Virus record (IMG/VR): IMGVR_UViG_3300009419_001390
Length of the DNA: 64,000 nt
Strand: one strand, 5' to 3'
From: a virus
Taxonomy: Duplodnaviria; Heunggongvirae; Uroviricota; Caudoviricetes
Part shown: in pieces, positions 1 through 61,982 of the stretch
Position numbering within the stretch: the stretch's first letter is position 1
Layout: each line of letters begins with the position of its first letter
Made by a program: the position numbers and the translations under genes
The notes under the pieces: model-generated
Databases searched by the model: none
The model's input: only the letters and a program-made list of their open reading frames with translations
Told to the model about the DNA's origin: nothing

Positions 1-85
1 AATAAATATATACTGTAAGTTATTGCTGTATGAAGCGGATAGAAAAGTGTTCTGGACGCGGGTTCGACTCCCGCCTGGTCCACCA
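1..85 (+). ncRNA. ssrA: tmRNA acceptor piece of a circularly permuted (two-piece) ssrA: T-arm, 3-prime acceptor strand, discriminator A and CCA; 5-prime end may lie upstream of window
   Basis: GGACGCGGGTTCGACTCCCGCC + CTGGTCC-A-CCA (54..85) is near-identical to the E. coli tmRNA 3-prime end; no complementary 5-prime acceptor strand within 80 nt upstream, but one lies 90 nt downstream. Confidence 0.6.
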
Positions 86-98
86 TAAGGAGATTGGT

Positions 99-173
99 AT
101 GAATGACAACCTGGGTAGTTTGGCGATAGGGGTAGTTGTTGTACTGGTAGTGTTTGCACTAGTCCTTTTATGA
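99..173 (+). CDS. hypothetical 24-aa hydrophobic peptide (MNDNLGSLAIGVVVVLVVFALVLL) inside the tmRNA intervening segment
   Basis: AAGGAG 6 nt upstream of ATG; single TM-like peptide; may be coincidental because permuted-tmRNA intervening segments are normally excised. Confidence 0.2.
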   Translation: MNDNLGSLAIGVVVVLVVFALVLL

Positions 174-174
174 T

Positions 175-428
175 GGGCCAGTCATGGTTTCGACAGGGCA
201 AAGAGTAAGCAAGTGGACAGCACGGTAAGGCAGAAACCGTAGGGTTGGGGGAACTCGGCCGTAGACGCAAAAAAAGTAAATGCAAAAGCAAATACACAAT
301 CTGGTGTTAAAGTAACAGTAGGCAAAGGTTTCCGTTTCGGCGGTTCCAAGTCTGCTCGCACTGAGGCAGCTTTCGCCTAAACAGCGAAACCAGCGGGGTA
401 GGACTTACCCTGTCAAATAAACAACCAT
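175..428 (+). ncRNA. ssrA: tmRNA coding piece: 5-prime acceptor strand GGGCCAG, D-loop analogue GGUUUCGACAGGG, tag reading frame ending ...TEAAFA-UAA (stop 378..380)
   Basis: GGGCCAG (175..181) pairs with CUGGUCC (75..81) including a G3·U70 wobble (alanine identity); downstream GGUUUCGACAGGG matches E. coli GGAUUCGACGGG; UAGAC-GCA resembles the E. coli resume context UAGUC-GCA; 3-prime boundary approximate. Confidence 0.5.
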
Positions 429-452
429 GGGCCTCCGGGCCCATTCTTTTCT
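429..452 (+). terminator. rho-independent terminator (GGGCCTCCGGGCCC + T-tract)
   Basis: GC-rich perfect hairpin followed by ATTCTTTTCT. Confidence 0.6.
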
Positions 453-718: not shown

Positions 719-1363
719 ATGAAACCCACCATCGCAATGTTTTTGTACCAGCCCAGGGCGTCTGTGCAATGCGGAAATGCAATGATGGAGGCCCTTTCCG
801 AGTATTATAAATTCAAAATCTTCACCAAGCAGAACATGGAAAAAGATTTCTTTGATGGCGTGGACATTGTGGCTTTTCCCGGAGGCGACGGGGATAGTGA
901 AAGCTATCATTTTCTAATGAAGCACCACGAACATCGAATCAAAAACTTTGTAAACAATGGCGGCCGATACCTGGGCATTTGCATGGGAGCCTACTGGGCA
1001 GGGTCCCATTACTTTGATATCCTAGACGGAGTGGATGCTGTGCAGTACATCACACAACCCAACACAGACACACGCCGCCCACATGCCAAGGCCTGCCCTG
1101 TAAACTGGCAAGGTGAAGATATGAAAATGTACTTCTATGACGGCTGTGCTCTGGCAGGCGATGAAAGCAAATTTGACACTGTTGCCCGTTACGCAAACGG
1201 TGACCCGATGGCCATATATCAGGATCGTATTGGAATAATGGGATGCCATCCTGAAAGCGAACAGTGGTGGTATGACATGCACAACTATCTCAAACCACAC
1301 TATCATAACGGCTATCATCATCAACTACTGTTAGACTTTACAAACGATCTAATGAAAAGATAA
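719..1363 (+). CDS. class I glutamine amidotransferase-like / peptidase C26-like protein
   Basis: GICMGAY nucleophile-elbow motif (G-x-C-x-G) and downstream GCHPE (His-Pro-Glu of the GATase triad). Confidence 0.5.
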
Positions 1364-3276: not shown

Positions 3277-3322
3277 CCATGTGTTGCGTAACAGCGCACA
3301 TTTTCAAAAAGGAAATTTTCAA

Positions 3323-3880
3323 ATGAAGAAGTTTATCGCATTGGCCGCACTATTGGCCGCAAGCACTGCCTTTGCAGGCGGTTTTGGCTCTGTTGAATAC
3401 AGTGGTCGTGACGGCGTTGATGGTACAGCAGATGCTCGTGCCACCAAGGTAACCATGGGCACAGATATCAATCAACTGTTGAAGGCCGATTTCAGTCTAC
3501 GTCAAAAGACCAACACTGACAACGATCTCAGCGACACACGCCTGGAAGGTGGCCTAACAGCCACGCAACCAATTGGCGGCACTGGGTTCAGCGTGTATGG
3601 TCGTGGTGCAGTGGGTGAGAAGTTCAAGACTTCGGCCAACTATACCTACTACTCAGTGGAGCCAGGCATCAAGTATGCGGTGACTCCGGCACTGAGTGTC
3701 AAAGCAGGCTATCGCTATCGTGCCGCACTAGACAGTGCAAACGCAGACACCACTCGTACATACCGTTTGGGTGCTGAGTATGCACTGACCAAGAACTACT
3801 TTGTTGGCCTAGGCTACGATCAAGTTCGCGGTGACAGCACATACAATGCTACCAACGTCGCTGTTGGTTTCAAGTTCTAA
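3323..3880 (+). CDS. small outer-membrane beta-barrel protein (signal peptide, C-terminal Phe), paralog 1
   Basis: MKKFIALAALLAASTAFA signal peptide; alternating amphipathic strands; terminal VGFKF typical of OMP beta-signal. Confidence 0.55.
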   Translation: MKKFIALAALLAASTAFAGGFGSVEYSGRDGVDGTADARATKVTMGTDINQLLKADFSLRQKTNTDNDLSDTRLEGGLTATQPIGGTGFSVYGRGAVGEKFKTSANYTYYSVEPGIKYAVTPALSVKAGYRYRAALDSANADTTRTYRLGAEYALTKNYFVGLGYDQVRGDSTYNATNVAVGFKF

Positions 3881-4572: not shown

Positions 4573-5112
4573 ATGAAAACAGTTGGACACAAGTTAGAAA
4601 AATTCGCAGTCACGGGTGTCAAGCCTGGACAGCCAGAAGATGCGTTCTTCGAAATTACAGATGAGAGCTTTCCCGGCAAGTGGAAGGTAATTGTTTACTA
4701 TCCAAAAGACTTCACATTCGTTTGCCCTACAGAAATTGTAGCCTACGACAAACTAACAGGTGACTTTGCCGACCGTGATGCAGTCCTGCTTACAGGTTCA
4801 ACAGACAATGAGTTCTGTAAAGTCAGCTGGCAAACAGCTCATGCTGATTTGAAGAAAATCACACACAACCAGTTCGCTGACACACAACGTGGCGAGTTGA
4901 GTCTTATCGATCAATTAGGAGTTTTCTATGCTCCAGCAGGTGCCGCACTTCGCGCAACATTCATCGTTGATCCAGACAACGTTATCCAACACGTTACAGT
5001 CAACAACTTGAACGTAGGCCGTAGCCCAGAAGAAACACTTCGTGTTCTTGATGCGTTACAAACTGGCGAGCTGTGTGCATGTAACCGTACAGTTGGCGGT
5101 GAAACACTTTAA
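4573..5112 (+). CDS. ahpC: peroxiredoxin (AhpC/TSA family, 2-Cys type)
   Basis: FTFVCPTEI peroxidatic-Cys motif; resolving Cys near C-terminus (ELCAC); length 179 aa. Confidence 0.8.
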   Translation: MKTVGHKLEKFAVTGVKPGQPEDAFFEITDESFPGKWKVIVYYPKDFTFVCPTEIVAYDKLTGDFADRDAVLLTGSTDNEFCKVSWQTAHADLKKITHNQFADTQRGELSLIDQLGVFYAPAGAALRATFIVDPDNVIQHVTVNNLNVGRSPEETLRVLDALQTGELCACNRTVGGETL

Positions 5113-9246: not shown

Positions 9247-9545
9247 GCAGTATGGAAATTGTATATAACCAAGCACCAGATGACCTGGATGTGGACAGCC
9301 GCAATCGAGAGATTCGTAGCATGTTACATCACGGCGTGTGTGAAGTTACCTTTACCAAAGTAAACGGTGAAACACGAACCATGCCCTGTACTTTGGATAG
9401 CACCTTGCTACCACCACAGCCACTCCGAGAGTTTCACGAGACTCGTGTGTACAAGCCTGAGACGCTGAGTGTATGGTGCTTGGACAAAATGGAATGGCGT
9501 AGTTTCCGTGTTGCTAATGTAACACGGATTGTGAGGACGCAATGA
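9243..9545 (+). CDS. hypothetical protein
   Basis: ORF track 9195..9545 with coupled internal start. Confidence 0.4.
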   Translation: MSSMEIVYNQAPDDLDVDSRNREIRSMLHHGVCEVTFTKVNGETRTMPCTLDSTLLPPQPLREFHETRVYKPETLSVWCLDKMEWRSFRVANVTRIVRTQ

Positions 9546-9742
9546 CCTTAGAAGATCTACAACATATCTTTGATCGCCAGATAGAAGAAGGCACCGAGAA
9601 ACTGTACTTCATGCTGGTTGATGGTGCGGCTATGCCTGAGATTTTACGCCACCCTGCAGAGGATCTGGAGAAATTGTTGCCCATGCTATCAAGTTTTCAG
9701 TACGTTGGTTCACCTGCTGGCATACCGAGGTTTACTAAATGA
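9542..9742 (+). CDS. hypothetical protein
   Basis: ORF track, ATGA coupling. Confidence 0.4.
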   Translation: MTLEDLQHIFDRQIEEGTEKLYFMLVDGAAMPEILRHPAEDLEKLLPMLSSFQYVGSPAGIPRFTK

Positions 9743-22135: not shown

Positions 22136-22357
22136 GTGGCTAAAGAAGGATTTGTTAATGTAACTGGTGTGGTAGAAGAAGTACTGCCCAATGCTACATT
22201 CCGAGTGGCACTCGAAAATAGCCAACATAAAATAATTGCGTATCTTGGCGGCAAATTACGCCAAAATAATATCAAAGTGCTCATGGGCGACACAGTTGAA
22301 CTAGAAATGAGCCCGTATGATTTGTCCCGCGGTAGGATCATATATCGTACTAAATAG
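22136..22357 (+). CDS. infA: translation initiation factor IF-1
   Basis: near full-length similarity to bacterial IF-1 (GVVEEVLPNATFRVALENS...MSPYDLSRGRIIYR); GTG start; AGGAGAAGG SD. Confidence 0.8.
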   Translation: MAKEGFVNVTGVVEEVLPNATFRVALENSQHKIIAYLGGKLRQNNIKVLMGDTVELEMSPYDLSRGRIIYRTK

Positions 22358-22361
22358 TCGT

Positions 22362-22925
22362 ATGAGTACCATACGACAACTAATTTCACTTGTGGAAAGC
22401 AAGGAAAAGAAAGATCTTGTGCAGGCAACATTGCCTTACAAACGCACAGATCTTGATCCTGTGAAATCCAAAGATACCCTGGACTATCACTACGGCACGT
22501 TGTATCGAGGTTATGTTGATCGATACAATGCCGGCGAAGGCGATGCAGACTTCAACGAAGCAGGTGCGTTTCTACACAACATATATTTTACACAACTACA
22601 ATCACCTGTGTCTGGCAACAAACCTGAAGGCGCCAGTGCAGAACTGATCAATCGTAAATTTGGTACATATCTTGATTTCCAAAAACAACTGGAAAAACAA
22701 GCCATGAGCATACAAGGGTCAGGCTGGGTGTATCTCAGCAGATCTGGCGAAATCAAAACAATCAAAAATCATCAGATCAAAAAAGACATTGCACTGCTAA
22801 TAGATTGGTGGGAACATGCCTGGGCACTGGATTATCAAGCAGACAAGGCCAAATACTTAAAAAATATATGGCGTATTATAAACTGGGAAACTGTGAATCG
22901 AAGAATATATGGAGGCATCAAATGA
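22362..22925 (+). CDS. Fe/Mn superoxide dismutase homolog
   Basis: LPY...YHYG...YV N-domain and [13 protein letters not shown]-domain; all four metal ligands (His, His, Asp, His) alignable to E. coli SodA. Confidence 0.6.
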
Positions 22926-23306: not shown

Positions 23307-26300
23307 ATGTCTCAGCAGATAATAGATATTGGTAGTGGCGCTGGTGCGGGGGATGGCGATGATCTTCGCACGGCGTTTGACAAAGTCAACCAAAACTTCG
23401 CTAACATCTACAGCGGAAATGTAGCAGTTCAAGCCAACACGTTGGTGTATTCCGTTGCTGGAAAACAAGGTAATGTACAGCTAGCATGGTTTGACGTAAC
23501 TGGTGTAGCAAGCAATGTTGACGTAAGCCAACTGCGTTCAAGTATGGCAGCAAATTCTGCCGCTGATCGAGCCTACACTGACGCCGCAATAAGCAGTCTG
23601 GGCCCATTGCCCAATATAACTGTAACCGGCGGCACCATTGCCAATGCTACCATTAGCAATGCCGAAATCACTGCTGGTAACATCACAGTAACCAACACAG
23701 CCACTGTGAATGGCGCATTGGTTGTAGACGGTCCCGCTTCGGTCACCGAAAACCTTGTGGTTGGACAAACCCTCACAGTCAACACCCTGAGATTCTCTGA
23801 CAACAGTAGTATGAACACTGTTGTTAACCTAACACCAATCAGCAATGCTGTGTTGGGTGCTAATGCACGTGTGGCCGCAGCCAATGTTGAAATTGGCAAC
23901 CTACGTGCCAATATTGAAGCGGCAAATTCCAGCATTGTATCTGTGCAAAGTAGCATCACTACTTTAACATCAAATGCTACCACTCAAGCTCTGGCAATTG
24001 GAGCAGTGACCAGCAATGTCAGCGTACTACTATCCAACGTCAGTAGTGTCTGGAGCAATGCTGTTTCTCAAGCTGTCCAGATCAATGCTCTTAGAGCAAA
24101 CATTAACGCAGCCAATGCCATAATCACCAGTGGTGTTGTGACCACTGCACAAATGTCAGCGGCCAACGTTGAAATTGACAATCTACGTGCCAACGTCACA
24201 GCAGCCAATGCGGCCATAGTTTCTTTGAGAGCACAAACAGATGCCAACGCAGGTGCTCAACACAATAGTATTGCAGGCATACGTGCCAACGTCACAGCAG
24301 CCAATGCGGCCATTGTAACAGCAAATTCTGCGCTCAAGGCTTATACTGATTCAGCAATCAGCAGTTTGACTACTAGCACCAGTGGCAACGCTGGTGTGCA
24401 AGCATTGGCAATCAATTCTCTACGTGCCAACATTGCCGCGGCCAATTCAGCTATTGCCGCCGCAAACATAACAGTTGCCAACATACAGATATCTGAACTA
24501 CGTGCCAACATTGATGCGGCCAATGCAGCCATTGCGGCTGTTACTGTAGCATGGACTGCCAATGCCGCAACACAAGCAACACAAATTAACACGCTCACAG
24601 CCAATGCTGGGGCCCAGACTACCAGTCTAAATATTCTCACAAGCAATGCGTCAGCACAAGGCAGTGCTATCAGTTCTTTGCAGGCCAACATTGCCGCGGC
24701 CAATGCAGCCATTGCCGCAATCGCAGTACCCAATTTATCAGGCAACGTTTTGGTTGGCAACATCCAAGGTTACCATGGCAACTTTAGCGTGGTGTCTGGC
24801 ACTGTGCAAACTGCCGCACAGCCAAACATTACCACAGTTGGTACTCTTGGCAACCTGGTGGTCTCCGGCAATATCACTGCTGGCAGAGTAACTGCATCTG
24901 TTGTTGATGGCACATTGACCAATGGTGTACAAGCAGGTATCACCGGCGTTGGTACGCTTGGATCGTTGACCGTGACAGGTAATGTCACAACTGGAAATGT
25001 AAGTGGTACTACAGGTACATTTACCAACATTGTTGGAAACTTGCTCACAACTGCACAACCAAATATTACCACAGTTGGTACTCTTGGTTCGCTTGCTGTG
25101 ACAGGCAATATTGATTCTGGCAACATCAACACCCTTAATGCCAACATTGCCACAAACCGATTGACAGCTAATACTGTGGCTGGCACTTTGATTACTCCGG
25201 TACAAACCAACATCACTCGAGTTGGTACATTGGTCAACTTGGCTGTTACTGGCAATACCACCAGCGGGAATGTAACTGCTTCTGGTACGGTACAAGCTGC
25301 TGGACTTTCGGGTACTGTATTAACAGCCGAACAACCTAACATTACCACAGTTGGTAATCTCACAAGCCTAATAGTAGTTGGCAACCTAGGTGTTATTGGA
25401 AACATAATCAATTCTGTCAACAGTGCCATAGTAATTGGCACTGTGGTTAGTGATTTTACTCTAGCAAACACATTAGTTTCTAGCAACATTAGTGGCACAC
25501 TATTCACTGCTCAGCAACCCAATATAACCAGCGTTGGCACACTGACATCAATTACCACCAGTGGCAATCTTGTGGCATCCAATGTTGTTGCCAACACACA
25601 AATATCAGCCCCTACACTGGTTGGTAACTTGACTGGTCCTACTGCCACAATATCCGGCAATATTCTTTCAGGCAATGTTTGGGTCCTGGGCAGAATATAT
25701 GCAGATGGCAACATTGACGGCAATATTGTTAACGCCACGGTGGGCATCAAGACTGAGGAGGTATTTGCCAACATTGGTTATTTTACTGATCTTAACGGAA
25801 CAGTTAAAACCAATGCACAACCATTCATTACCGCTATTGGTACCTTGTCAGCATTGTCAGTTGATGGCCCAGTTAGTATTACTGGTAGTCAATTTGTAGC
25901 ACAAGATTTTTATGTTACCGGAAACTTGTTTGTAAACGGCAACACCACCACGGTCAGCGCAGGCAATGTAACCACCAGCGACAAAGACCTAACACTGGCC
26001 AATGGTGCTGTCAACTCAACCGCCGCACGTGGTTCTGGTATACTTATTGGTCAAGGCGGAGCATACGGTAATCTAACCATTTATGATGGTGTATGGACCA
26101 CACCAAACGCATTTGCCATTGCAGGCAATGTGAGTACAGGCAATGTAAGTGGCTCTAAAGGATCGTTCAGCATTGTTGGCGGAACACTAGAAACAGCCGC
26201 ACAGCCAAATATCACAAGCGTTGGTACACTGACTTCTGTTACAACAACCGGTGCAGTGACAGCAGCCAACATTACAGTAGCTGGCGCTACAATACAAGAC

Positions 26301-29300
26301 ATAAACGCAACCAACGGTAACATCCAAATATTACGACCAGAACATGTGTTTGCGTCTGGGAACGTAATAGCCACAGTTGGTGAATTTACTGGCCTGTCAG
26401 GTTCGTTGCGTACAGCACTACAACCAAACATTACTCAAGTTGGTACACTAGGCACATTGTCTGTAACAGGCAATGTTGGCACAGGCAATGTAAGTGGCAC
26501 TACTGGATCATTTACCAATATTGTTGGAACTGTTCTCACTGCATCACAACCCAACATCACCACTGTTGGTAATCTTGGCAATTTGAATGTAACTGGCACA
26601 GCAACCGTTGGCGGATTGGTAATCCAAGGCGGTGGTGCAGGATCTGCATTTGCTGTAGAGAATATTACCGCTACAGCAAATCTAACAACTTCTAATCTAA
26701 CAGTGACTGGTATTGCCAATTTGGTTAGCTTTACTGGTACTGTTCTAAACAACGCACAACCTTTCATTACCAGTGTAGGCACTTTGACTACCTTGGATGT
26801 GACTGGCAATGTTGATGCAGGCAATGTCAATGCCACAACTGGTCATTTTGCAAATGTCACTGCTACAACTTTAGTACGTGGTGAAAATGTATCTGCCAAT
26901 GCCAATGTCACTGCAACAAATGGTGTGTTTACCGATGTGTATGGTACACTACAAACTGCTAGTCAAACAAATATCACGTCAGTTGGCACATTAATTTCAC
27001 TTGGCGTGACAGGCAATGTCACAACTGGCAACGTTAGTGGCGCAACTGGTACATTTACCAACATACGCGGTGCCGTGCTTGATGCCAGCCAAACCAACAT
27101 CACTACTATTGGTACACTGTCTGGATTGGCAGTAACTGGCACAACTGCACTTGCAAATGTAACTGCCAATGGTGCAACATTCAAAGACATCAATGCAACT
27201 TACGCCAATATTGGCTCAGAGGCAAACATTGCTGGTAACGTAACTGCTGGTAACATCAGCGCAAGCAAAGGCACGTTTACACAAGTACAAGGCACACTAC
27301 AAACCAATTCGCAACCTTTTATTACTGAAGTTGGACTGTTAGGGAATCTAGATGTTGCTGGCACTGTACTAGCCCCTGCAGTTGGTAATGTTAGTACTCT
27401 ACTGCGTGGTTACATAGTCAACAACTTCCAACCAAATATCACTGAACTTGGTGCATTGACATCGTTGTCAGTTATTAATGTGGTCAACACTGCAAACATC
27501 ACTGCTGCCGGTGCAGTGTTGCGTGACTTGAATGTTACCACAGCAAATATTACGCTTGAAGCAAACATTGGTGGAAATGTAACATCAGCCAATATCAGCG
27601 CATTCAAAGGCACCTTTACACACATAGACGGAACACTGCTAACAAATGCACAACCGTTTATAACCAGCATTGGCACTTTGCCAAATTTGAGCGTAACTAG
27701 TAATATTGGTGTAGGCAATGTCAATGCTGTGTCCACAAACACAACTGGTAACTCTGTATCAGCCAACACACAGGTAACTGGCACAGCACAAATTGCCAAC
27801 TTGACAGTGTCTGGAAACACTGCGCTGGTCAACAATGTAAATGCACTGAGCAGTTTGAATGTGACTAATCAGTTGATTGTGTTGGGTTCCAATGTAAATG
27901 CATTCAGCGCCAACTTCCAGGCAAGTTCTGCGTCAATCACAAACACACTGTCAGTTGACACATTGTTTGTTAGATCAACAGCGGAATCAATTGAGGCAGC
28001 AACTGGAGCATTGCAAGTTGCTGGTGGCCTTGGTGTAGTTGGAAACGTAAGCGTTGATGGACTCATTACTTCACAAGGTAATTTACGTTCAGCCAAAAGT
28101 CTTGAAGTACTAGACAGTGCATTTATTGGTAATTCTATCTATCTAAATGACATTGGTGGCGGTGGCGGAACAGGAATTTATTCTAACGTAGCAAACGTTT
28201 CACTATTCCCAAGTTCTGTTACTAATCTTGATATTGGTGGCGAAGCAACATTGATCAATGTTGGTGCTATTAGCGGATTGGGTATCACTAGAGTTCGCAA
28301 CAACCTGTTGGTTGATGGATCTTTCTTTATTGCTACAGTTGGTAATATAGGCTCTGGCAACGTCACGGTCAACAACGATCTGCGTGTGCTCAACAATGCA
28401 AACGTAATCAACTCATTTACTACCAACACGTTGACTGCAACAAACAGTACATCCGGCAGCGTCACAGCCAACGTTGTTACTGTGGCTGATGTTGTTACTG
28501 TGGGTAATCTTTCAGCGGCAGCAAATGCAACTAGTTTGAGCACCGGGGCATTACGAGTGCGCGGTGGTATAAGTGCTACTGGCAATATCATTGTTGGTTT
28601 TGGTAACGTAGGTTACAATGCTGGTAAAGAAATTGTTTACATCAACAGCAACGTTGCACAGATAACAGCAGCCAATATCCAACAGCTAAGTGGTGCCTTG
28701 CAGGTACGAGGCGGCGCATCAATTGGTGGTAACCTGTATGTTGCTGGTGAAGCGACCATTATTGGTAACGTGAACTTCACAGCGTTCTTGGCAGCATCTA
28801 TCAACAACACACCAATTGGCAATGCAACACCCAGCTCAGGTGCATTTACCACGCTGGCGATTGGCGCAGGAAACGTTCGCCCACCATCACGTCCAGCAAT
28901 CAGTTTTGATTTTGCAAACAGTCGCAAACTAGATACAATATTGAATTTTTCTAGAACTGGGACAGCCACATATTATGATGCAAGAGGATTCCTGGTCACT
29001 GCTCCTAGTCAGACACCTAGATTTACCTATGATCCTAGCACATTGCGTTCACGTGGTATTCTTATTGAAGAGAGCCGCACAAACTTGTATAGAGAAAGCA
29101 ACAGCTTTGGCAATGCCAATGTATACACCACTTTGCAGGCATCAATCACAACAGTAGCACATGCTACCTCAAGTCCGGATGGAAACTATAATGCTTTCAA
29201 ATTGGTAGAAGATAGTAGTACCGGTCTTCATGCTGTTTATCAACAGGCGCCTTATGTTCCAACAATATCAGCTGGTACCACATACACAGCCAGTGCGTTT

Positions 29301-30140
29301 GTCAAACGCGGAGAACGAGATCAAGTGTCATTGGTTTTCTTTGCTGAGTCAAACCCAGCAATATTTGACTTGACCAATGGAACAATTGATTTCCAAGGAC
29401 CTGACTATCGCAGTAGCATGCAAACATTGGCCAATGGCTGGTACCGTATCCAAAGTACCATAAACAAAACCAATACCAGCGGCAACGTGGCAATTGCATC
29501 AGCAACAGGTGGATCAGTTTACTATACTGGCAATGGCACCAATGGCGTGTACATTTATGGATTCCAAGTGGAAGAAGGCGGATTTGCGACCAGTTATATT
29601 CCAACCACAACCATTGCCAACACACGCAGTTCAGAAAGCCTAACAGTTTCTAGCATTGAATTTTTACGCCGTTACAACCAAGTTGAAAACAGTGTGTTGG
29701 TTGATGCCACGCTAGACTACAATCCTAGCACATTGGTAGACAACAATAGACGTAGCACTATTGTCAGTTTCAATGATGGTACTGCAAGCAATCGCATTGC
29801 AATCCTGGCAGAAACTAAATCAGCCACTGCTGAACGCACAGCTAATTTAATTATTGTCAAAGCTGGCACAGTGGAATCCAATGCCAATATTACGTTAGGC
29901 AACTTGACCACTGTGGTCAACAACAACCGACTGGCTTCATATTTCCAGTCTGGCACATTGGCCACTGCGGCCAATGGAACTGGCACAACAACTGCTGTGG
30001 CCGGCAACGTAAGCTCATCTATCAATACAATGAATATTGGCAGTGGCCCAGGAACTAACTTTATCAACGGTACTATTGCAAAAATACAGGTATGGCCAGC
30101 ACTGGTCACTGGATCGCAATTATCTACACTAACACAATAA
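23307..30140 (+). CDS. giant tail-fibre protein (2277 aa) with conserved N-terminal anchor motif, LRAN-x-AAN repeats, about 40-aa TAAQPNITTVGTLGSL repeats, and GALxVxGGxGIxGNxYV motifs
   Basis: GAGGGTG SD; N-terminal IGSGAGAGDGDDLRTAFDKVNQNF shared with two other fibre genes; extreme Thr/Asn/Gly/Val/Ala bias. Confidence 0.7.
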   Translation: MSQQIIDIGSGAGAGDGDDLRTAFDKVNQNFANIYSGNVAVQANTLVYSVAGKQGNVQLAWFDVTGVASNVDVSQLRSSMAANSAADRAYTDAAISSLGPLPNITVTGGTIANATISNAEITAGNITVTNTATVNGALVVDGPASVTENLVVGQTLTVNTLRFSDNSSMNTVVNLTPISNAVLGANARVAAANVEIGNLRANIEAANSSIVSVQSSITTLTSNATTQALAIGAVTSNVSVLLSNVSSVWSNAVSQAVQINALRANINAANAIITSGVVTTAQMSAANVEIDNLRANVTAANAAIVSLRAQTDANAGAQHNSIAGIRANVTAANAAIVTANSALKAYTDSAISSLTTSTSGNAGVQALAINSLRANIAAANSAIAAANITVANIQISELRANIDAANAAIAAVTVAWTANAATQATQINTLTANAGAQTTSLNILTSNASAQGSAISSLQANIAAANAAIAAIAVPNLSGNVLVGNIQGYHGNFSVVSGTVQTAAQPNITTVGTLGNLVVSGNITAGRVTASVVDGTLTNGVQAGITGVGTLGSLTVTGNVTTGNVSGTTGTFTNIVGNLLTTAQPNITTVGTLGSLAVTGNIDSGNINTLNANIATNRLTANTVAGTLITPVQTNITRVGTLVNLAVTGNTTSGNVTASGTVQAAGLSGTVLTAEQPNITTVGNLTSLIVVGNLGVIGNIINSVNSAIVIGTVVSDFTLANTLVSSNISGTLFTAQQPNITSVGTLTSITTSGNLVASNVVANTQISAPTLVGNLTGPTATISGNILSGNVWVLGRIYADGNIDGNIVNATVGIKTEEVFANIGYFTDLNGTVKTNAQPFITAIGTLSALSVDGPVSITGSQFVAQDFYVTGNLFVNGNTTTVSAGNVTTSDKDLTLANGAVNSTAARGSGILIGQGGAYGNLTIYDGVWTTPNAFAIAGNVSTGNVSGSKGSFSIVGGTLETAAQPNITSVGTLTSVTTTGAVTAANITVAGATIQDINATNGNIQILRPEHVFASGNVIATVGEFTGLSGSLRTALQPNITQVGTLGTLSVTGNVGTGNVSGTTGSFTNIVGTVLTASQPNITTVGNLGNLNVTGTATVGGLVIQGGGAGSAFAVENITATANLTTSNLTVTGIANLVSFTGTVLNNAQPFITSVGTLTTLDVTGNVDAGNVNATTGHFANVTATTLVRGENVSANANVTATNGVFTDVYGTLQTASQTNITSVGTLISLGVTGNVTTGNVSGATGTFTNIRGAVLDASQTNITTIGTLSGLAVTGTTALANVTANGATFKDINATYANIGSEANIAGNVTAGNISASKGTFTQVQGTLQTNSQPFITEVGLLGNLDVAGTVLAPAVGNVSTLLRGYIVNNFQPNITELGALTSLSVINVVNTANITAAGAVLRDLNVTTANITLEANIGGNVTSANISAFKGTFTHIDGTLLTNAQPFITSIGTLPNLSVTSNIGVGNVNAVSTNTTGNSVSANTQVTGTAQIANLTVSGNTALVNNVNALSSLNVTNQLIVLGSNVNAFSANFQASSASITNTLSVDTLFVRSTAESIEAATGALQVAGGLGVVGNVSVDGLITSQGNLRSAKSLEVLDSAFIGNSIYLNDIGGGGGTGIYSNVANVSLFPSSVTNLDIGGEATLINVGAISGLGITRVRNNLLVDGSFFIATVGNIGSGNVTVNNDLRVLNNANVINSFTTNTLTATNSTSGSVTANVVTVADVVTVGNLSAAANATSLSTGALRVRGGISATGNIIVGFGNVGYNAGKEIVYINSNVAQITAANIQQLSGALQVRGGASIGGNLYVAGEATIIGNVNFTAFLAASINNTPIGNATPSSGAFTTLAIGAGNVRPPSRPAISFDFANSRKLDTILNFSRTGTATYYDARGFLVTAPSQTPRFTYDPSTLRSRGILIEESRTNLYRESNSFGNANVYTTLQASITTVAHATSSPDGNYNAFKLVEDSSTGLHAVYQQAPYVPTISAGTTYTASAFVKRGERDQVSLVFFAESNPAIFDLTNGTIDFQGPDYRSSMQTLANGWYRIQSTINKTNTSGNVAIASATGGSVYYTGNGTNGVYIYGFQVEEGGFATSYIPTTTIANTRSSESLTVSSIEFLRRYNQVENSVLVDATLDYNPSTLVDNNRRSTIVSFNDGTASNRIAILAETKSATAERTANLIIVKAGTVESNANITLGNLTTVVNNNRLASYFQSGTLATAANGTGTTTAVAGNVSSSINTMNIGSGPGTNFINGTIAKIQVWPALVTGSQLSTLTQ
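24186..24313 (+). repeat. exact 32-nt direct repeat (cgtgccaacgtcacagcagccaatgcggccat) at 24186..24217 and 24282..24313, in frame, within fibre gene
   Basis: read directly from sequence. Confidence 0.7.
24780..27700 (+). repeat. degenerate tandem repeat of about 117-123 nt (about 40 aa) inside the fibre gene
   Basis: recurring ...CAACCAAATATTACCACAGTTGGTACTCTTGG... blocks. Confidence 0.5.
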
Positions 30141-31548: not shown

Positions 31549-34500
31549 ATGGCAAAAAAGCAACTTAGGAAGTATAGTTTCACCCCCGGAGCAGCCGGTG
31601 TTGGTTATGTAGTGGTCGAAGGAAAACAAGACCAATACAAGCTACTGCTGATAACCAACGTGACTCGAGGAGTTATTCTTTACAACTTTGCCGACACACA
31701 GAACACAGCGGTTACTGTAACATACAAACCCGGTGGTATTAAAACTACAACGGCAGATTCATCTGTTGTAACCTACGACGATGTTCCAATTGGCAGCGGT
31801 GTAGTAGGCACTGCGGTTATACAAAATACACCAGGCCAAGGTGAAACCACAATTAGATTTGACGGAATAAGCACCACAGGACACAGCGCCAATGATGAAC
31901 TGAGTATCTTCGTTGAAGAAGCATATCAAATGGTTCGTGCATGGAATGACTTTGGCACTGACGCAATTGAACGTCAGCGTGTGGCCAACCCCCAATCACA
32001 GATTGACGCTGACTTTGAATACGGACTACAAGCCACCAAATGGCAAGGCTTTGAGCTTGTTCAGCAGTATCCTAGTGTGTACGAAATTCCTGGTTCAGAA
32101 TTAAACATCAGTGACATCACATCAGACAACGCTATTCCAAGTTTGATCACTGTTACCACCAGCAGCGGTCATGGCATGAACATTAACGATCCAATTACTG
32201 TACAAGGCATTGACGTCAATACTACTGGATTTACTCGAGCACAAGGAACAACTATTCTTGCTAGTAATACTGGTGTTACTTCGTTTACTTACTATGCCAA
32301 AGGACAAGTCACTCCACTGGCAGGCGCAGGAACCAGTATCATAAGTCCTCGTATAATCATAAGAAAAGGTGGTTTTTTCTCTGGTGCCAATCTGTCAGTC
32401 TCTCAGTTTACTAGCAACAACGGAACTCCAAGTTCAGTAACAATTACCTTTGGCTCCTCGCATGGTTTTGTGCCAGGCATGCCATTGCTGATTGGTGGTG
32501 ATCCAGCATTCAACTCAAATCAATTTACAAATTTGATTGGGTCATATTATGCCAACTCAATTCCTACTCCAAGCACTGTGGAATTTACTGCTCGCGGACT
32601 GGTAAACATTCCTAGCACAGTGGCCCCAAACGGCAGCAACTTGTTAACAGTCTACACACGCAACGACGGATTCTTTACACATCGTCCTGGAGATGGTGGT
32701 GTGCTCATGGGCACAGCAAGTGCCATACATGGTGCAAGTACAACTCGTCAAAGCAAAAAATACTTTCGGTATCAGTCTGGTAAGGGCTTGTTGTACACCA
32801 CTGGTGTACTGTTTGCGCCAAACTATGACATTACCAGTATTGTAATTACCAACCCACCTGCACAAGGTGCAGGTTCTGCAATCCTGCGTATCACCACAGC
32901 TATTCCACACGGTTGCCAAATTGGTGCAGTTGTGCGAGTTACTGGTTGCGTGGATTCTGCAACTTCGTCTGGATTTAATGCACAATACACTGTTCTAAGT
33001 GTAGAAAGCGATGTACAACTTAATGTGCTTGCCTCTCAGTTGATCACTGGATCAGCTGCCGATATCGCAGGCGTGCCTAAACTGTATATGTATCAGTGGA
33101 ATGGTGCATGTATTCGTACAGGCCCACATGATGACGCCAATGGTATGTTCTTTGAATATGACGGACAAAACTTCAACGTTGTCAAGCGTACTAGTACGCT
33201 TCAATTGGCAGGTACTGTGACATTTACACCAGATTCAAATGCACTAACTGGTATTGGATCATTGTGGACCAATCAATTGAAAATTGGTGATCGTGTGGTC
33301 ATCAAAGGCATGGTTCACAAGGTAAACTTTATTACTTCTGCAACTAGTATTTCTGTTACTCCAGACTATCGTGGTGCAACAACAACCAGTGGTAACTACA
33401 TGTTCAAAGTGCAAGAAGTACGTGTGAAGCAAGCAGACTTTAACTACGATCCTGCAGACGGCACAGGACCGTCAGGTTATAAGATGGATCCTAACCACAT
33501 GCAGATGATTGGTATTCAGTTTACCTGGTACGGTGCTGGTTTTATGGATTTTATGGTACGTGGCAGCGATGGTAATTTTATTATCCTGCACCGCATGAAA
33601 CAAAACAACGTGAACGTAACTGCTTCTATGCGTTCAGCCAACTTACCAGTTCGCTATGAAGTTAACAATGAAGCATCCAATGGTGTGGTACAGTTGAAAA
33701 CCATTGGTGGACTTGATCCTGCTTCCAGTAGTTGTGCAGTAAGTGATGCTAGTTTCTTGCCAGACACTGGTTTTATCTACATGAACTATGAGTTAATTAG
33801 ATATGCCAGCATCAATCGCAACGATTTACCATTTCCAATTCTCAACAGCTTGACTCGTTGTGCGGCGGCCAACGTGTTTATTGGAGGCTCTTATAGAACC
33901 ATCCACGGTCGACCAGTTCCGCAATCCCATGCTTCAGGATCGGGTATAGAACTAGTAAGTTTAACAGCCAGTCCAAACATGAGTCACTGGGGTAGTTCAT
34001 ATATCATGGACGGCGGTTTTGATCTAGATCGTGGTTATGCGTTCTCGTATACTAGAGCGTCAACACCAATTACTTCTACACAAAGCTCAGCATTTGGTAT
34101 TAGGCTTGCCCCTAGTGCGTCCAACGGATTGGTTGGAGACTTGGGTGTGCGTGAATTGCTTAACCGTGCTCAATTGTTGCTACAAAACATTGACGTCACA
34201 GTGGGCAATGCCTCAGTGACTGATGGTGTGCGTAGTGCAGTTCAAGCTAATTGTGTAATTGAAGCTAACTCTGCTATTCTTGTACAGGGAATTTTGAATC
34301 CCAGCAATTATTCAAACAACGAAACCTGGACTGTGTTAAACAAAACAGCCACTGGTAACCAGCCTAGTTTTACACAAATTGCAGAAGTTCCTAGTTTCAG
34401 TTCTGGCACATCTGCAGCACCGGGCGAAAAAATCTTTGAATTTATTGCAAGTCCAGGACAATTGAATCAATTGGATTTGACAGGAATCAAGGAATTGACG

Positions 34501-34647
34501 CAGAGTGCTGTGGGCGGACGTGGTACGTTTCCAAATGGATCTGACAGCTTGTACATCACTCTAGCACTTTATCCAACTGGTACGCAACCACCTAGAATCA
34601 TGGGAAATGTGAGTTTGACGCTACGATGGAACGAAGCGCAGGCCTAA
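31549..34647 (+). CDS. large structural protein (1032 aa), baseplate or fibre component
   Basis: position in fibre module; upstream ATAAATT + TGGAG. Confidence 0.5.
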   Translation: MAKKQLRKYSFTPGAAGVGYVVVEGKQDQYKLLLITNVTRGVILYNFADTQNTAVTVTYKPGGIKTTTADSSVVTYDDVPIGSGVVGTAVIQNTPGQGETTIRFDGISTTGHSANDELSIFVEEAYQMVRAWNDFGTDAIERQRVANPQSQIDADFEYGLQATKWQGFELVQQYPSVYEIPGSELNISDITSDNAIPSLITVTTSSGHGMNINDPITVQGIDVNTTGFTRAQGTTILASNTGVTSFTYYAKGQVTPLAGAGTSIISPRIIIRKGGFFSGANLSVSQFTSNNGTPSSVTITFGSSHGFVPGMPLLIGGDPAFNSNQFTNLIGSYYANSIPTPSTVEFTARGLVNIPSTVAPNGSNLLTVYTRNDGFFTHRPGDGGVLMGTASAIHGASTTRQSKKYFRYQSGKGLLYTTGVLFAPNYDITSIVITNPPAQGAGSAILRITTAIPHGCQIGAVVRVTGCVDSATSSGFNAQYTVLSVESDVQLNVLASQLITGSAADIAGVPKLYMYQWNGACIRTGPHDDANGMFFEYDGQNFNVVKRTSTLQLAGTVTFTPDSNALTGIGSLWTNQLKIGDRVVIKGMVHKVNFITSATSISVTPDYRGATTTSGNYMFKVQEVRVKQADFNYDPADGTGPSGYKMDPNHMQMIGIQFTWYGAGFMDFMVRGSDGNFIILHRMKQNNVNVTASMRSANLPVRYEVNNEASNGVVQLKTIGGLDPASSSCAVSDASFLPDTGFIYMNYELIRYASINRNDLPFPILNSLTRCAAANVFIGGSYRTIHGRPVPQSHASGSGIELVSLTASPNMSHWGSSYIMDGGFDLDRGYAFSYTRASTPITSTQSSAFGIRLAPSASNGLVGDLGVRELLNRAQLLLQNIDVTVGNASVTDGVRSAVQANCVIEANSAILVQGILNPSNYSNNETWTVLNKTATGNQPSFTQIAEVPSFSSGTSAAPGEKIFEFIASPGQLNQLDLTGIKELTQSAVGGRGTFPNGSDSLYITLALYPTGTQPPRIMGNVSLTLRWNEAQA

Positions 34648-34687: not shown

Positions 34688-37600
34688 ATGGCAAAAATAA
34701 CATGGGTCACTCCGCAAGGAGATCTTGGCACATATCCAGAAAATGTAGAATTCAGCTTCCTGTTGGAAGCTGATGATCCACTGGCTCCGGATTCTGATCT
34801 AGGGTTTGATCCTAGAAACAGCCTGACTGGCAACGGTATTCCCAATCAAGTAACTGTTGAAATTGAAACCAACAAAACTCGTTGGCAAGTACAGTCGTTG
34901 AATTTACCAGGTTTTGCCAGTGTCGGAGCATTTCCTAATGATCAAAATCCCAATCGCATCACTGCTCAGCCAATTGATGCACAGTATCCCTATCGCGGTG
35001 GCCGCAACAAAGTAGCAGAAACATTTACTCCATTACCATTGGGTCCAATTGGCATCAGTGCAGTTGGCGTGGTATTATTTGGACCGGCTGCGGATATACG
35101 TGTCCCAGGACTAAACAACACAGTATGGAACGTGAATGCCAATGTTGCAGATATATTTGGTGAAGACCAATTTGGCGGATACCCACAGCCAAACGGTATG
35201 TATCATTATCATGACACAAAATTTATCAACAGCAATGCCTGGGGTAACATAGATCAATGGAAAGACGGATATCGTCATGCCAATGGACACAGCAAGATAA
35301 TAGGCTGGGCCGCTGACGGTTATCCTATATATGGTCCATATGGATATATCAATCCAATGTCTGCAAGTGCTATTGTTAGAATGCAGTCAGGTTATACTGC
35401 TGTGGCCAGTGACAATCGTCCACGACCTGCCGCTGTAAAAATACCCTCAGGACGCTATGAATTTGCAAAAGTTCCTGTGACTGAAACCACAGGACTATTT
35501 CCTGGACAACGCATACGCGGTCCATGGCCTGAAGACAAGATAAGAATTATTGCAGTATACAACAACGAAATATTGCTCAACCAAGTCTTGCCAACAGAAA
35601 TTCGACCAGGAGTTAGATTATCAGCATATTGGCCAATTGGTGTGTTTGTTGAAGACTATCAGTATACCGCTCCGCAAGGAACCAGCTTGGATCCTAGCAA
35701 TGGCAGATATTGTGTGACTCCTGAGTTTCCTGCAGGAACTTACGCATACTTTTCAACAGAAGATGTGAATAGTGAACCAGTGTATCCTTACATGGTAGGC
35801 CCAAATTACTACGGTGACATCACGCCAGATGACATACCTGGTGTGGCAAATATTGAACCAGCTCCGTCAACCTTGACCTATACCATACTCAGCGGTAGTT
35901 TGCCAATTGGCATTCAACTGCGCAGAGATGGACTAATTTATGGTTTCCCCTCAGTCACTACCATAGGCGTTAGTGACGTAAGAGAATATTCTTTTACTGT
36001 TCGTGCAACAAATACCATTGGTCAAATTGCAGATAGAACTTTTGTTATTTCTATCAACAACATTGTTCCTCCACAGATTCTCACAACTGGTATTAGAGGC
36101 GAAGGTGTTGGACAAACAATTGGCAATATTGATCTTGCGTTTACAAACATTGGATTAGGATACTTTTCTACCAATGTGAGTATAGCAATTAGCGATCCAG
36201 ACATCATAGGCGGAGAACCTGCTGTTGCTGGCAAAGTGTATCTTCACGCCAACGGAGCTATTAAAGCTGTTGGTTTGGTAAGTTCCGGCACTGGCTATAC
36301 TTCATTGCCTACCATTGGCATCACTGGCGGTAACACAGTTGCGGCAAGTTGTACAATTACATCACTAACTAAATCAGGTAGAGAAAATCTTGGTTATTAC
36401 TTTGATGGTGATTATGTTGACATAAAAATTAACGCACTTGAAATCAGTCCTACTGGAATACTGCAATGGCAAGTATCGCAAGGTTCGTTGCCGCCAGGAT
36501 TGGTAATTGATCAAACTGGCCGTATTAGTGGATTTGCACAAGCGCCGGCCAGACCTGGCGATGTTGGTACAGCGGCATATGATGTTGGGCGGTATGATCA
36601 ATTTGTTTATGATTTTGAAGGTGCGGCAGACAGTCGTGTGTATCTTTTCAATCTTCGTATTTTTGATGGCATTAACTATGTTGATCAACGATATCGTCTG
36701 GGCATATACGACAAAACTTATTTCCTTGTTGACAATGAATTAATTACCGCTGACTCTACTCGTTACACTGCGGACCGAGACGGCTACCAATATCCAAGCA
36801 TTGTTACTGCCAGTACCACGTTGCCACCAGTGCGACAAGGACAACAATATGCATATCAATTTCAGTCGTATATTTCTAATCCCAACTTAGAAGTCAAATG
36901 GAGTGTAAATGCAGGAGGCCCTGCAAGGTTTGATCAAGGAGCCAGTCCCAATCCCGACGATAATAATCGATTCTTTACCGTGGTGCCATACGACGATCGT
37001 AGCTTTGACCAAACTGATTTAAGTTTACCAGGAGGAATTTTCCTAGATGGCGACACCGGTTGGCTACTTGGAAGAATTGGCACAGTAACACAAGCAGAAA
37101 GCACTTACGAATTTACTGTAACGGCCTATGTTGAAGTTCCAATTTCTCAATCAACAACCAGTATTCGTCGCAGTCAACCAGTTAAATTCAGCATTACTGT
37201 ACTGAGTGACATTAAAGAAACTGTTACTTGGCTATCACCCAGTGATCTTGGCACCATTGACAATGGTCAGATCAGCAGTGTTGCTATCGAAGCATCAACC
37301 AATAAAAATAGTACACTGACCTACAAAGTAAAAAGTGGACAGTATCTGCGTGTTCCGCAAGGGCTTAATTTACAGAGCAACGGATTACTCAGTGGACGAA
37401 CTACCTTTGACTACTTTAGCATGGATCGTAGAAACAGCGAAATTACTTTTGATAGTGAAAGTAATACCTATGACAGCAAATATGTGTTTACTGTGATAGC
37501 TCAGGACGCCACTGGGTCAGTCTACGACGAAAAAGAATTTACTCTTACAGTTACAAATGTAAACAAGAAGCCCTACGAAAATCTTTATCTAAAGGCTCTG

Positions 37601-40414: not shown

Positions 40415-41019
40415 GTGAAAGTCCTAGCTTTACTGTCAACTGGGCAGTGCGTAACATTGCATTTGACAAGTTTAATTTTGTTGCTGTGGGTAATCTTGAA
40501 GAACAGGGTTATAGAGTACAGGATGGAGATACATTGATATTTGTACAACAAGAAGGATTTGGTGGCTTGAATGATGGGTGGAATCTGTACAGTGAAACAT
40601 TTGGTGATGAACCAGGTTCCGCGCTTGGATTTGATACCAGCACCTTTGATCAGTACACTGTGATTCCAGGCTATACTGAAAGCACAAGCGATAGCAGTCT
40701 AAGCAATCAACGTGCTGGAATTTGGAAAGTGATAATCAATGCAAATAATATTGTAACTTTACAATTCCAACGACAAGTCCTGCCTGGGCAAGTAGTTAAT
40801 GTAACTAGCGAAACTAGCAAACTGTTCTATGACCCGCAAATCAAGGCAGGAAAAACTGTACCAGAATACAGTTTGATCAGCACTTTGTTGCCCGACAGCA
40901 CACAAAACACTAGTTTTGACACTGAAGGAACTCGCTTTAGCAGTAACAGAGACAACTTTACCGAACCCGGAACTCTGGATAAATACCTTAAGTTCCCCAA
41001 AACCGGAGTATTTAGATAA
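40324..41019 (+). CDS. C-terminal continuation of the 34688 gene in the -1 frame (or separate 231-aa propeller-like protein)
   Basis: sequence continues the blade pattern (NGISRGASTPVAIGASGVILSE vs preceding SLRSIAFINNVIYLVGARGTIVSS); overlaps upstream ORF by 91 nt. Confidence 0.4.
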   Translation: MADRFTNNRLNGISRGASTPVAIGASGVILSESPSFTVNWAVRNIAFDKFNFVAVGNLEEQGYRVQDGDTLIFVQQEGFGGLNDGWNLYSETFGDEPGSALGFDTSTFDQYTVIPGYTESTSDSSLSNQRAGIWKVIINANNIVTLQFQRQVLPGQVVNVTSETSKLFYDPQIKAGKTVPEYSLISTLLPDSTQNTSFDTEGTRFSSNRDNFTEPGTLDKYLKFPKTGVFR

Positions 41020-55008: not shown

Positions 55009-55596
55009 ATGAATAATCGAACGATACTAACAGACTGCGATGGCGTGTTGTTGGATTGGGAATGGGCGTTTGGTATCTGGATGCAAGAGCGTGGTTATGT
55101 GCAACGACCCAATGCAAAAGACTATTACACAATACATGACCAATTTGACAATCTAACTTGGACAGAAGCCAAAAAGTTTACCCGGCTGTTTAACGAGTCG
55201 GCTGCTATAGGATTCCTGCCGCCACTAAGAGATAGCGTGTACTGGGTACGGCGATTAAACGAGGAACTTGGCTACAGGTTTATTTGCATTACCAGCCTCT
55301 CAACTGACGTAAATGCACAAAAACTACGCCGCATGAACCTAGAGAAATACTACGGTGATGTGTTTGATGATGTGGTTTGTTTGGAGACAGGCAGTGACAA
55401 ACATGAAGCACTTGACAAGTTTGCAGGCACCGGCCACTGGTGGATAGAAGATAAGCCAGAGAATGCCGATGTGGGCTTCGAGCGCGGGCTTAGAAGCATC
55501 TTAATTGAACACGGGCATAATATGAAGCATACATGCCCGTATCCAATTGTTAAGAATTGGAAGGAGATTTTTGAAATAGTCTCCGCCAAAGATTAA
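55009..55596 (+). CDS. HAD-superfamily 5-prime(3-prime)-deoxyribonucleotidase-like (NT5C family)
   Basis: DCDGVLLDW motif I, ICITS motif II, late K...D(D) motifs. Confidence 0.5.
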   Translation: MNNRTILTDCDGVLLDWEWAFGIWMQERGYVQRPNAKDYYTIHDQFDNLTWTEAKKFTRLFNESAAIGFLPPLRDSVYWVRRLNEELGYRFICITSLSTDVNAQKLRRMNLEKYYGDVFDDVVCLETGSDKHEALDKFAGTGHWWIEDKPENADVGFERGLRSILIEHGHNMKHTCPYPIVKNWKEIFEIVSAKD

Positions 55597-61976: not shown

Positions 61977-61982
61977 ATGCGC

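Follow-up and report, generated by a model that had tools for sequence, protein, structure and literature searches.

We analysed a stretch of 64,000 nucleotides, hereafter the window, from a virus of the Caudoviricetes (IMG/VR record IMGVR_UViG_3300009419_001390). The first 452 nucleotides of the window are a genuine circularly permuted gene for a two-piece transfer-messenger RNA (tmRNA), in which the piece carrying the CCA acceptor end precedes the piece carrying the reading frame of the proteolysis tag. A preliminary description, made from the sequence alone, had proposed such a gene, and we found it with both covariance models and ARAGORN. The Rfam model RF04321 (tmRNA_permuted) matched positions 24..310 over its full length (1-213) with 97.3 bits, for a gathering score of 47 and an E-value of 1e-17; relatives of the gene scored 67-138 bits with the same model. 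On bases 1-1200, ARAGORN identified a permuted tmRNA with a 3' tRNA domain that ends at CCA 85 and a 5' domain that begins at position 175. The span that it gives for the gene, -8 to 471, reaches beyond the start of the window.

The tmRNA gene and its fold

The elements of the tRNA-like domain lie where the preliminary description had placed them. The acceptor piece contains a T-arm (58-74) with the stem 58-62/70-74 (G58-G62 and C70-C74) and the loop UUCGACU (63-69), of the type GGUUCGAnUCC, followed by the 3' acceptor strand CUGGUCC (75-81), the discriminator A82 (A73) and an encoded CCA (83-85). The 5' acceptor strand, GGGCCAG (175-181), is found beyond a spacer of 89 nucleotides. The acceptor stem 75-81/175-181 forms all seven pairs, including G177.U79, which is the wobble pair G3.U70, and its 5' strand is directly followed by UCAU and the D-loop analogue GGUUUCGAC (182-194). 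All alanine identity elements are present (G3.U70, discriminator A73 and 3' CCA), from which charging with alanine is predicted. In the predicted fold of the precursor, the two ends of the spacer pair with each other and lengthen the acceptor stem.

A motif scan of IMG/VR with the acceptor piece produced at least 120 further loci. We extracted 135 motif-bearing stretches among the matches listed, and in 96 of them ARAGORN detected a permuted tmRNA. Individual loci are designated by L numbers. For the analysis of covariation we used the acceptor piece and the first 70 nucleotides of the coding piece of 81 unique sequences, with a structure derived from Rfam. The pairs G1-C72, G2-C71 and G3.U70 were invariant in all 81 sequences. 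Acceptor pairs 4, 5 and 6 showed changes on both sides in 31, 20 and 13 sequences, respectively, and were canonical in 97% of the cases; all five pairs of the T-arm covaried. The inner P2 helix (48-54/194-200) was canonical throughout (100%), and four of its six pairs each had 8-21 double changes; the outer P2 helix (24-28/218-222) was canonical in 97.5% of the cases, and three of its five pairs each had 13-21. When the partners were slid by 1-3 columns, canonical pairing fell to 3-76%, whereas it was 97-100% in the true register. Compensatory changes were also seen between close sequences: the window and its near-twin L160 differ in one pair of the acceptor stem (A-U to U-A), and L160 and L001 carry a C/G swap in the stem of the terminator. 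The predicted fold is thus supported by evolution, through compensatory changes among 81 unique relatives.

The stop codon of the tag frame lies in the loop of a helix-5-like hairpin, as in canonical tmRNAs. Stems of at least 5 base pairs flank the stop in 30 of 62 unique contexts of the family, against 11.6 +/- 3.0 in shuffled sequences, and the arms of these hairpins vary among members (AGCAG/CUGCU, GGCUGC/GCAGCC, AGCCG/CGGCU). The GC hairpin terminator that had been described at the end of the gene was recovered by a terminator scan, with UCUUUUCU directly 3' of its stem. The family-invariant GAAAAG of the acceptor piece (41..47) is complementary to the U-tract CUUUUCU (446..452), and the two pair in the co-fold of the pieces. 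This could be a true pairing of the 3' end of the coding piece with the acceptor piece, or a chance match between A-rich and U-rich stretches.

The promoters of the relatives are canonical and consist of TTGACA, 17 nucleotides, and TATAAT or TATACT, at about 7 nucleotides before the acceptor piece. The sequence of L240 is 92% identical to positions 1-98 of the window; it reads TTGACAACAGGTGCAAATAAATATATACTGTAGG, which is aligned to the window from position 1 on, and TTGACAACAGGTGCAAATAAATATATACT over its promoter. Given this alignment, positions 1-14 would correspond to the end of the promoter spacer and the -10 box, with the -35 box just outside the window. The UAUAAU of the Rfam beta_tmRNA model itself aligns to positions 9..14. 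The window therefore seems to open inside the putative sigma-70-type promoter of the tmRNA gene, and from the position of this promoter we estimated the 5' end of the acceptor piece at 19-22. The coordinates of all these features are collected in Table 1.

Table 1. Features of the permuted tmRNA gene at the start of the window.
Feature	Positions	Strand	Basis or details
Promoter, 3' part (end of 17-nucleotide spacer and -10 box TATACT, 9..14)	1..14	+	Relatives, Rfam; predicted function
Acceptor piece	19..85	+	Rfam alignment, ARAGORN 3' tRNA domain, covariation
P2, 5' strands	24-28 and 48-54	+	In acceptor piece
Intervening segment, predicted to be removed in precursor processing	86..174	+	Between encoded CCA and 5' acceptor strand
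Nested mini-gene	87..173	+	Shine-Dalgarno AAGGAG 87-92, ATG 99-101, stop UGA 171-173
Coding piece	175..452	+	Rfam alignments, ARAGORN, covariation
D-loop analogue	186-194	+	In coding piece
P2, 3' strands	194-200 and 218-222	+	In coding piece
PK1 hairpin	223-239	+	Rfam alignment
Tag reading frame (resume GCA 282-284, stop UAA 378-380)	282..380	+	ARAGORN, relatives
Helix-5-like hairpin UUUCGC (371-376)/GCGAAA (384-389)	371..389	+	UAA in loop 377-383
Conserved hairpin 3' of tag, core stem GGGGUA/UACCC	393..413	+	Predicted fold; position kept in relatives
Intrinsic terminator, 7-bp stem AUGGGCC/GGCCCAU (427-444), U-tract (445-452)	427..452	+	Terminator scan

The proteolysis tag and the spacer

The tag frame ends in TEAAFA before a UAA stop, as previously described. 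Its start had to be revised: the resume site had been proposed at UAGAC-GCA, near 262-269, whereas ARAGORN, both Rfam alignments and the alignment of the relatives give the GCA that follows GUAAAU at 282-284. The upstream GCA (267-269) is in frame in the window, but as we read the alignment it falls into another frame in L017 and other relatives, and we rejected it as the resume codon. Since both GCA codons are in the same frame in the window, the reading of the carboxy terminus is unaffected. The tag of the window thus has 32 residues, AKANTQSGVKVTVGKGFRFGGSKSARTEAAFA, and ends in AAFA. Most tags of the family are much shorter: among the 96 listed relatives, 77 have tags of 10 residues, and 86 have tags that end in ALAA, typically of the ANDxxFALAA type (ANDEQFALAA, ANDSQFALAA, ANDERFALAA); these tags are recognisably proteobacterial.

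The long tag is shared by a small group of relatives, of which L240-L243 were obtained by scanning metagenome contigs with the tag string. It is identical in L160, L242 and L243, has one substitution in L240, and differs in L001 and L241 by an in-frame indel of 3 nucleotides and synonymous changes. A related tag of 27 residues in L203 ends in SLAV, and other members of the family have tags of 26-31 residues that resemble amino-terminal extensions of the canonical ANDxxFALAA. The in-frame indel, the synonymous changes and the one-residue variant among the long-tag relatives indicate that the tag frame is under coding constraint, while its length and its protease-recognition end appear to be shifting. 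As nearly all relatives have ALAA at this end, proteins tagged by the window copy may meet a different fate or a different protease. Gur and Sauer reportedly found in 2008 that the long ssrA tags of Mycoplasma and Mesoplasma (...YAFA or ...FAFA) switch specificity to Lon instead of ClpXP. These tags are said to be likewise long (~27 residues), with an A-F-A carboxy terminus in the place of L-A-A; they come from different organisms and are unrelated in sequence to the tag of the window, and we take them as a lead only. The lengthening of the tag and the rewriting of ALAA to AAFA suggest that phages may retune the fate of tagged proteins.

The spacer between the two pieces holds a small reading frame of its own. 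A Shine-Dalgarno sequence directly follows the CCA, and the open reading frame (ORF) of 24 codons (99..173), which would encode the hydrophobic peptide MNDNLGSLAIGVVVVLVVFALVLL, finishes one nucleotide short of the 5' acceptor strand. By scanning with its 3' end as anchor we retrieved 41 phage loci with 23 unique DNA versions, all of which have a Shine-Dalgarno sequence after the CCA. Like the tag frame, this mini-ORF evolves as a coding sequence. The ratio of nonsynonymous to synonymous polymorphism (pN/pS), computed on the 17 codons left free by the search pattern, was 0.47 for the frame of the ORF and 0.76 and 2.46 for the two shifted ones, and indels were of single codons only; in a first set of five sequences, 5, 2 and 12 sites varied at codon positions 1, 2 and 3. 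Two features of the RNA constrain the end of the ORF as well. A conserved UGAU before G1 partly supplies the stop, so the position of the stop is not independent evidence, and the predicted fold of the precursor pairs AAGGAG, in the closing stem, with the last codons of the mini-ORF.

A longer frame (31..173) starts at an ATG in the conserved GUAUGAAGC, crosses the T-arm and the CCA and joins the mini-ORF (MKRIEKCSGRGFDSRLVHHKEIG...). As no more than 3 of the 23 versions keep this frame open, we judged it a probable product of chance. It may nevertheless be annotated by gene callers, and in phage BUDD a coding sequence for a 'hypothetical protein' overlies the tmRNA. Annotation pipelines thus either overlook the mini-genes of the spacer or, as BUDD shows, predict spurious ORFs over the tmRNA.

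The length of the spacer varies from 24 to 232 nucleotides among the relatives. Among the 50 unique spacers with 75 nucleotides or more, 14 have a spacer-filling ORF of at least 20 codons led by a Shine-Dalgarno sequence, whereas shuffled sequences have 0.51 +/- 0.71 (maximum 3). The products of these ORFs are mostly strongly hydrophobic peptides, and several unrelated ones occur in the spacers of related tmRNA genes. In L063 and L142 (spacers of 220 nucleotides) the cargo is a 69-residue protein that matches the full length of the Pfam membrane protein family DUF2061 (75.7 bits for a cutoff of 23.1). A basic, tryptophan-rich cargo of 56 residues is found in L240, L241 and L001, and also in L144 (the spacers of L240 and L144 have about 185 nucleotides), and small genes also occupy the spacers of L035, L062/L134, L090, L166, L152, L161 and L191. 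The long-tag clade alone has three kinds of spacers: that of the window with its 24-residue peptide, that with the 56-residue protein, and an ORF-less spacer of 97 nucleotides in L160. Some ORF-less spacers, in L016 (~9455..9552) and in L068, L070 and L073, show a T-arm-like GGTTCGAxTCC with a possible short, acceptor-like flanking stem, which together would make a tRNA-like mini-helix; nothing in these spacers reached the gathering score of the Rfam tRNA model.

As near-identical tmRNAs carry different cargo (window, L160 and L240), the content of the spacer seems exchangeable. That the spacer of the permuted tmRNA gene is, in this jumbo-phage lineage, an exchangeable slot for Shine-Dalgarno-led small genes, mostly for single-pass hydrophobic peptides, is in our opinion an even bet. 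In such a slot, cuts at 85/86 (after the CCA) and at 174/175 (by RNase P) would release a minimal mRNA in equimolar amounts with the tmRNA, with its stop one nucleotide from the 3' end, and the output of the membrane peptide would be tied to the maturation of the tmRNA. Our literature searches found no report of a coding sequence within the spacer of a permuted tmRNA, and the intervening segment of the Caulobacter tmRNA is not known to be coding.

Genomic context and lineage

The genes that surround the tmRNA are those of a large phage. All but two of the long ORFs of the window are on the + strand, and they encode a T4-type clamp loader, an ATP-dependent DNA ligase, metallophosphoesterases and radical-SAM proteins. 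The nearest cultured relatives of the clamp loader are in PA5oct-like jumbo phages of Pseudomonas (56% amino-acid identity); next come those in jumbo phages that infect Sinorhizobium, Agrobacterium, Ralstonia and Xanthomonas. More than 600 loci in IMG/VR, in contigs of up to 367 kb, are related to the gene adjacent to the tmRNA. Judging from this gene content, the relatives of the clamp loader and the large IMG/VR contigs, the window is part of an uncultured jumbo phage of a large environmental clade that is distantly related to PA5oct. A 31-mer specific to the window had no match in metagenome contigs, and none of the loci that we retrieved was nearly identical to the window.

Since the context of the window copy can be read only from position 1 on, its upstream context is taken from relatives. 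In L040, L060 and L035 the upstream genes are co-directional and encode the small chain of ribonucleotide reductase, 2OG-Fe(II) oxygenases, radical-SAM, Rieske and rubrerythrin proteins, and in L240 the tmRNA is preceded by an AAA ATPase and an AMP-binding enzyme. The neighbourhood of the tmRNA in relatives is mosaic, yet shares the downstream genes of the window.

Other genes of the window deserve mention. Four consecutive giant ORFs (23307..30140, 2277 residues; 31549..34647, 1032; 34688..40414, 1908; 41019..44579, 1186) probably encode virion or tail-fibre proteins; the ORF of 1908 residues is the only one of the four with Pfam matches (YHYH, He_PIG Ig-like and a weak BNR). A full-length Hsp70/DnaK (53030..54964, 842 bits) forms a chaperone pair with a DnaJ (61977..62801) that has both a J and a C-terminal domain. 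The window also encodes an AhpC/TSA peroxiredoxin (4573..5112), a Fe/Mn superoxide dismutase (22317..22925), PhoH (55593..56387, on the - strand) and a GH19 hydrolase, probably an endolysin (58447..59076). Together with DnaK, DnaJ and the tmRNA, these four genes suggest a stress and proteostasis gene set. Two further genes are unusual cargo for a phage, one with a biotin-protein-ligase N-terminal or glutamine-amidotransferase-like domain (719..1363) and one for a protein with an outer-membrane beta-barrel domain (3281..3880).

Among the sub-types of tmRNA, the window copy was best matched by RF01850 (beta_tmRNA), with 62.9 bits and an E-value of 8e-19 over model positions 37-331. Close relatives pass the threshold of this family with 94.6-137.2 bits (L060 with 137.2, L068 with 111.4, and L081 and L083), whereas for L016 the alpha model gives the highest score. 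Permuted tmRNAs with the GUAUGAAGC motif are also present in the cultured phages Marzo (Stenotrophomonas), BUDD and JGB6 (both Xanthomonas), and those of Marzo and JGB6 pass the beta_tmRNA threshold. Their Stenotrophomonas and Xanthomonas hosts have one-piece tmRNAs. The phage-type motif GUAUGAAGC...GAAAAG is present in at least 120 viral contigs and in only one of the genomes of 185,579 species, and this lineage of beta-type permuted tmRNAs therefore seems essentially restricted to phages. The single bacterial match is in a metagenome-assembled genome of Haliscomenobacter sp. (contig NZ_JBBAKG010000001.1, 183 kb; L204 4926..5161, - strand). It is a permuted tmRNA (RF04321, 67.4 bits) without an encoded CCA, with a tag that we read as ANDSQYLVAANA, and it adjoins what reads as a rubrerythrin-like ORF. 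The contig may be a mis-binned phage. This match does not point to a host for the window, as its tmRNA lacks the encoded CCA and the contig shares no genes with the window.

The preliminary description had also taken the type of the tmRNA as a hint at the host lineage. This hint is weak: the beta-type lineage reaches cultured phages of Stenotrophomonas and Xanthomonas, which makes the type of tmRNA an unsafe marker of the host, and the type of the tmRNA of the OM43 phage Melnitz does not match its host either (PMC9004378). The preference of L016 for the alpha model and the single occurrence of the motif in bacterial genomes weaken the hint further. The host of the window is probably a proteobacterium, and the tmRNA narrows it no further.

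Function, alternative explanations and known systems

We estimate at roughly 0.85 the probability that the window carries a functional beta-type two-piece tmRNA gene of an uncultured jumbo phage. Its mechanism can be drawn from established tmRNA biology, which PMC9004378 and PMC11915505 relate after Keiler et al. (2000). The RNA polymerase of the host would transcribe a single precursor from the sigma-70-type promoter, with the acceptor piece, the 89-nucleotide spacer, the coding piece and the terminator. The tRNA-processing enzymes of the host would then mature it: RNase P would cut 5' of G175, the 3' end would be trimmed back to CCA 85, and the two RNAs would be held together by the acceptor stem of 7 base pairs and the P2 helices. 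Host alanyl-tRNA synthetase (AlaRS) would charge the tmRNA with alanine through G3.U70 and A73. With the SmpB and EF-Tu of the host, the tmRNA would enter ribosomes stalled on broken mRNAs, and translation would resume at GCA 282, appending the tag of 32 residues that ends in AAFA. The excised spacer would in addition encode the membrane peptide of 24 residues. The most likely benefit to the phage is that ribosomes would be kept free while mRNAs are degraded in infection. As the window also encodes DnaK, DnaJ, peroxiredoxin and superoxide dismutase, the tmRNA may be part of a phage toolkit of protein quality control that sustains translation late in infection.

Some results weigh against this reading. 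The window copy scores below the gathering threshold of beta_tmRNA (62.9 versus 84 bits), partly because positions 1-36 of the model fall outside the window and because the long tag displaces the terminal hairpin; it appears related to beta_tmRNA and likely to work like it, while being formally below the threshold of the family. The middle segment of P2 in the Rfam model (4 base pairs) is unformed in the window. The PK1 hairpin aligns poorly in the relatives (58% canonical), and no second stem was recovered for the putative pseudoknot. The thermodynamic (minimum free energy) co-fold of the two pieces gives the acceptor stem and the T-arm but misses P2, so the case for P2 rests on covariation. 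The AAFA end of the tag departs from the ALAA of 86 of the 96 listed relatives, which makes recognition of a ClpXP type uncertain. Finally, a tblastn search with an approximate SmpB query, which is a weak test, found no SmpB-like ORF in the window, and the tmRNA would thus rely on the SmpB and AlaRS of its host.

Three other explanations can be put forward for the locus, and we consider each of them less likely than a functional phage two-piece tmRNA. The tmRNA is located at the very edge of the window, with the sequence directly upstream outside of it, and ssrA genes are common integration sites (PMC11915505); the locus might thus be the end of a host ssrA captured at, or flanking, the integration site of a prophage. 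This explanation is close to refuted. Both pieces are intact, and so are the -10 box and the terminator; there is no second copy of the acceptor end (60-85, up to 3 mismatches) in the 64-kb window, and no integrase domain was found among the scanned ORFs of at least 200 residues. We also found neither an integrase nor a duplicate of the acceptor end upstream of the gene in L040, L060, L035 and L240, and the relatives embed the gene in co-directional blocks of phage genes. The distribution of the motif, which is frequent in viral contigs and found once in bacterial genomes, points in the same direction. The statement of the preliminary description that the tmRNA is phage-encoded, and not a host ssrA used for integration, is thus supported by the jumbo-phage content of the window and by its relatives.

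The two remaining explanations accept a phage gene and question its role. The tRNA-like domain could be a decoy that titrates the SmpB or AlaRS of the host and blocks host trans-translation, leaving the tag frame unused. This was proposed for the gene of mycobacteriophage DS6A, which consists of the tRNA-like domain only, and a phage tmRNA with only this domain inhibits tmRNA upon its expression in Escherichia coli (PMC11915505, PMC4131195); the atypical tag of the window would also fit. We regard a decoy as very unlikely, since the frame is open over 32-33 codons, the long-tag clade varies in it by an in-frame indel and synonymous changes, the GUAAAU-GCA resume context and the hairpin with the stop in its loop are conserved, and canonical ALAA tags are kept in most of the listed relatives. 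It is quite unlikely, too, that the gene is mainly a platform for the expression and processing of its cargo, whose tRNA-like ends attract RNase P and 3' trimming and so release a small mRNA, with trans-translation being secondary. The excess of spacer-filling ORFs over shuffled sequences, the bona fide DUF2061 cargo and the differing spacers of otherwise near-identical tmRNAs would be expected from such a platform, but many members with ORF-less spacers, or spacers of 24-33 nucleotides, keep a complete covarying tmRNA with its tag. Because these cargo-less members have an intact tmRNA, it appears to be maintained for its own sake.

The core of this finding is one more phage two-piece tmRNA of a known class, as such tmRNAs have already been published (PMC9004378, PMC7162821), and its novelty was overstated in the preliminary description. 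Phage tmRNAs have long been known, e.g., in mycobacteriophages and Bacillus phage G (PMC4131195), and tmRNAs were reported in huge phages (PMC7162821). In 2022, 53 unique two-piece tmRNAs had already been counted in isolate phages, and the OM43 phage Melnitz and pelagimyophages carry them (PMC9004378). Like the gene described here, the published cases are permuted ssrA genes in genomes of lytic-type aquatic phages without integrase; the tmRNA of Melnitz differs from that of the window in being alpha-like and in carrying a glutamine riboswitch (PMC9004378). The copies of Marzo, BUDD and JGB6 are closer, with about 80% identity to the acceptor piece of the window and the same 5' motif, and the records of Stenotrophomonas phages already annotate their tmRNA. 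The cultured Stenotrophomonas and Xanthomonas phages have tags of 14 residues (VAANDDSYTVRIAA and similar), compared with 32 in the window, and we saw no convincing ORF in their spacers. What looks new is the atypical long tag and the conserved, Shine-Dalgarno-led ORF of 24 codons in the spacer.

Among bacterial genes, the two-piece tmRNA of betaproteobacteria (Sharkady and Williams 2004, cited after PMC9004378) shares with the window the order of CCA-bearing acceptor piece, spacer and coding piece, and the same tRNA-like domain and P2 pairing. The window copy differs from it in being phage-borne, in the phage-specific GUAUGAAGC...GAAAAG motif of its acceptor piece, in its tag of 32 residues ending in AAFA, and in its peptide-encoding spacer. 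The Caulobacter tmRNA of Keiler, Shapiro and Williams (2000), for which we follow PMC9004378 and PMC11915505, is the precedent for a single precursor that is cut by tRNA-processing enzymes into two paired RNAs active in trans-translation, whereas it is of the alpha type and a chromosomal gene of the host. The nearest precedent for the nested gene is given by the intron-form tmRNA genes, where some group I introns hold ORFs for homing endonucleases (PMC11915505), i.e., a protein-coding ORF nested in a segment that is removed during maturation. There, the segment splices itself out within the T-loop and carries a homing endonuclease, whereas in the window it would be removed by end-processing of a permuted precursor, with small cargo that mostly consists of membrane peptides. 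If the spacer genes are translated, they would represent a new way to pack and co-express a gene inside the gene of a stable RNA.

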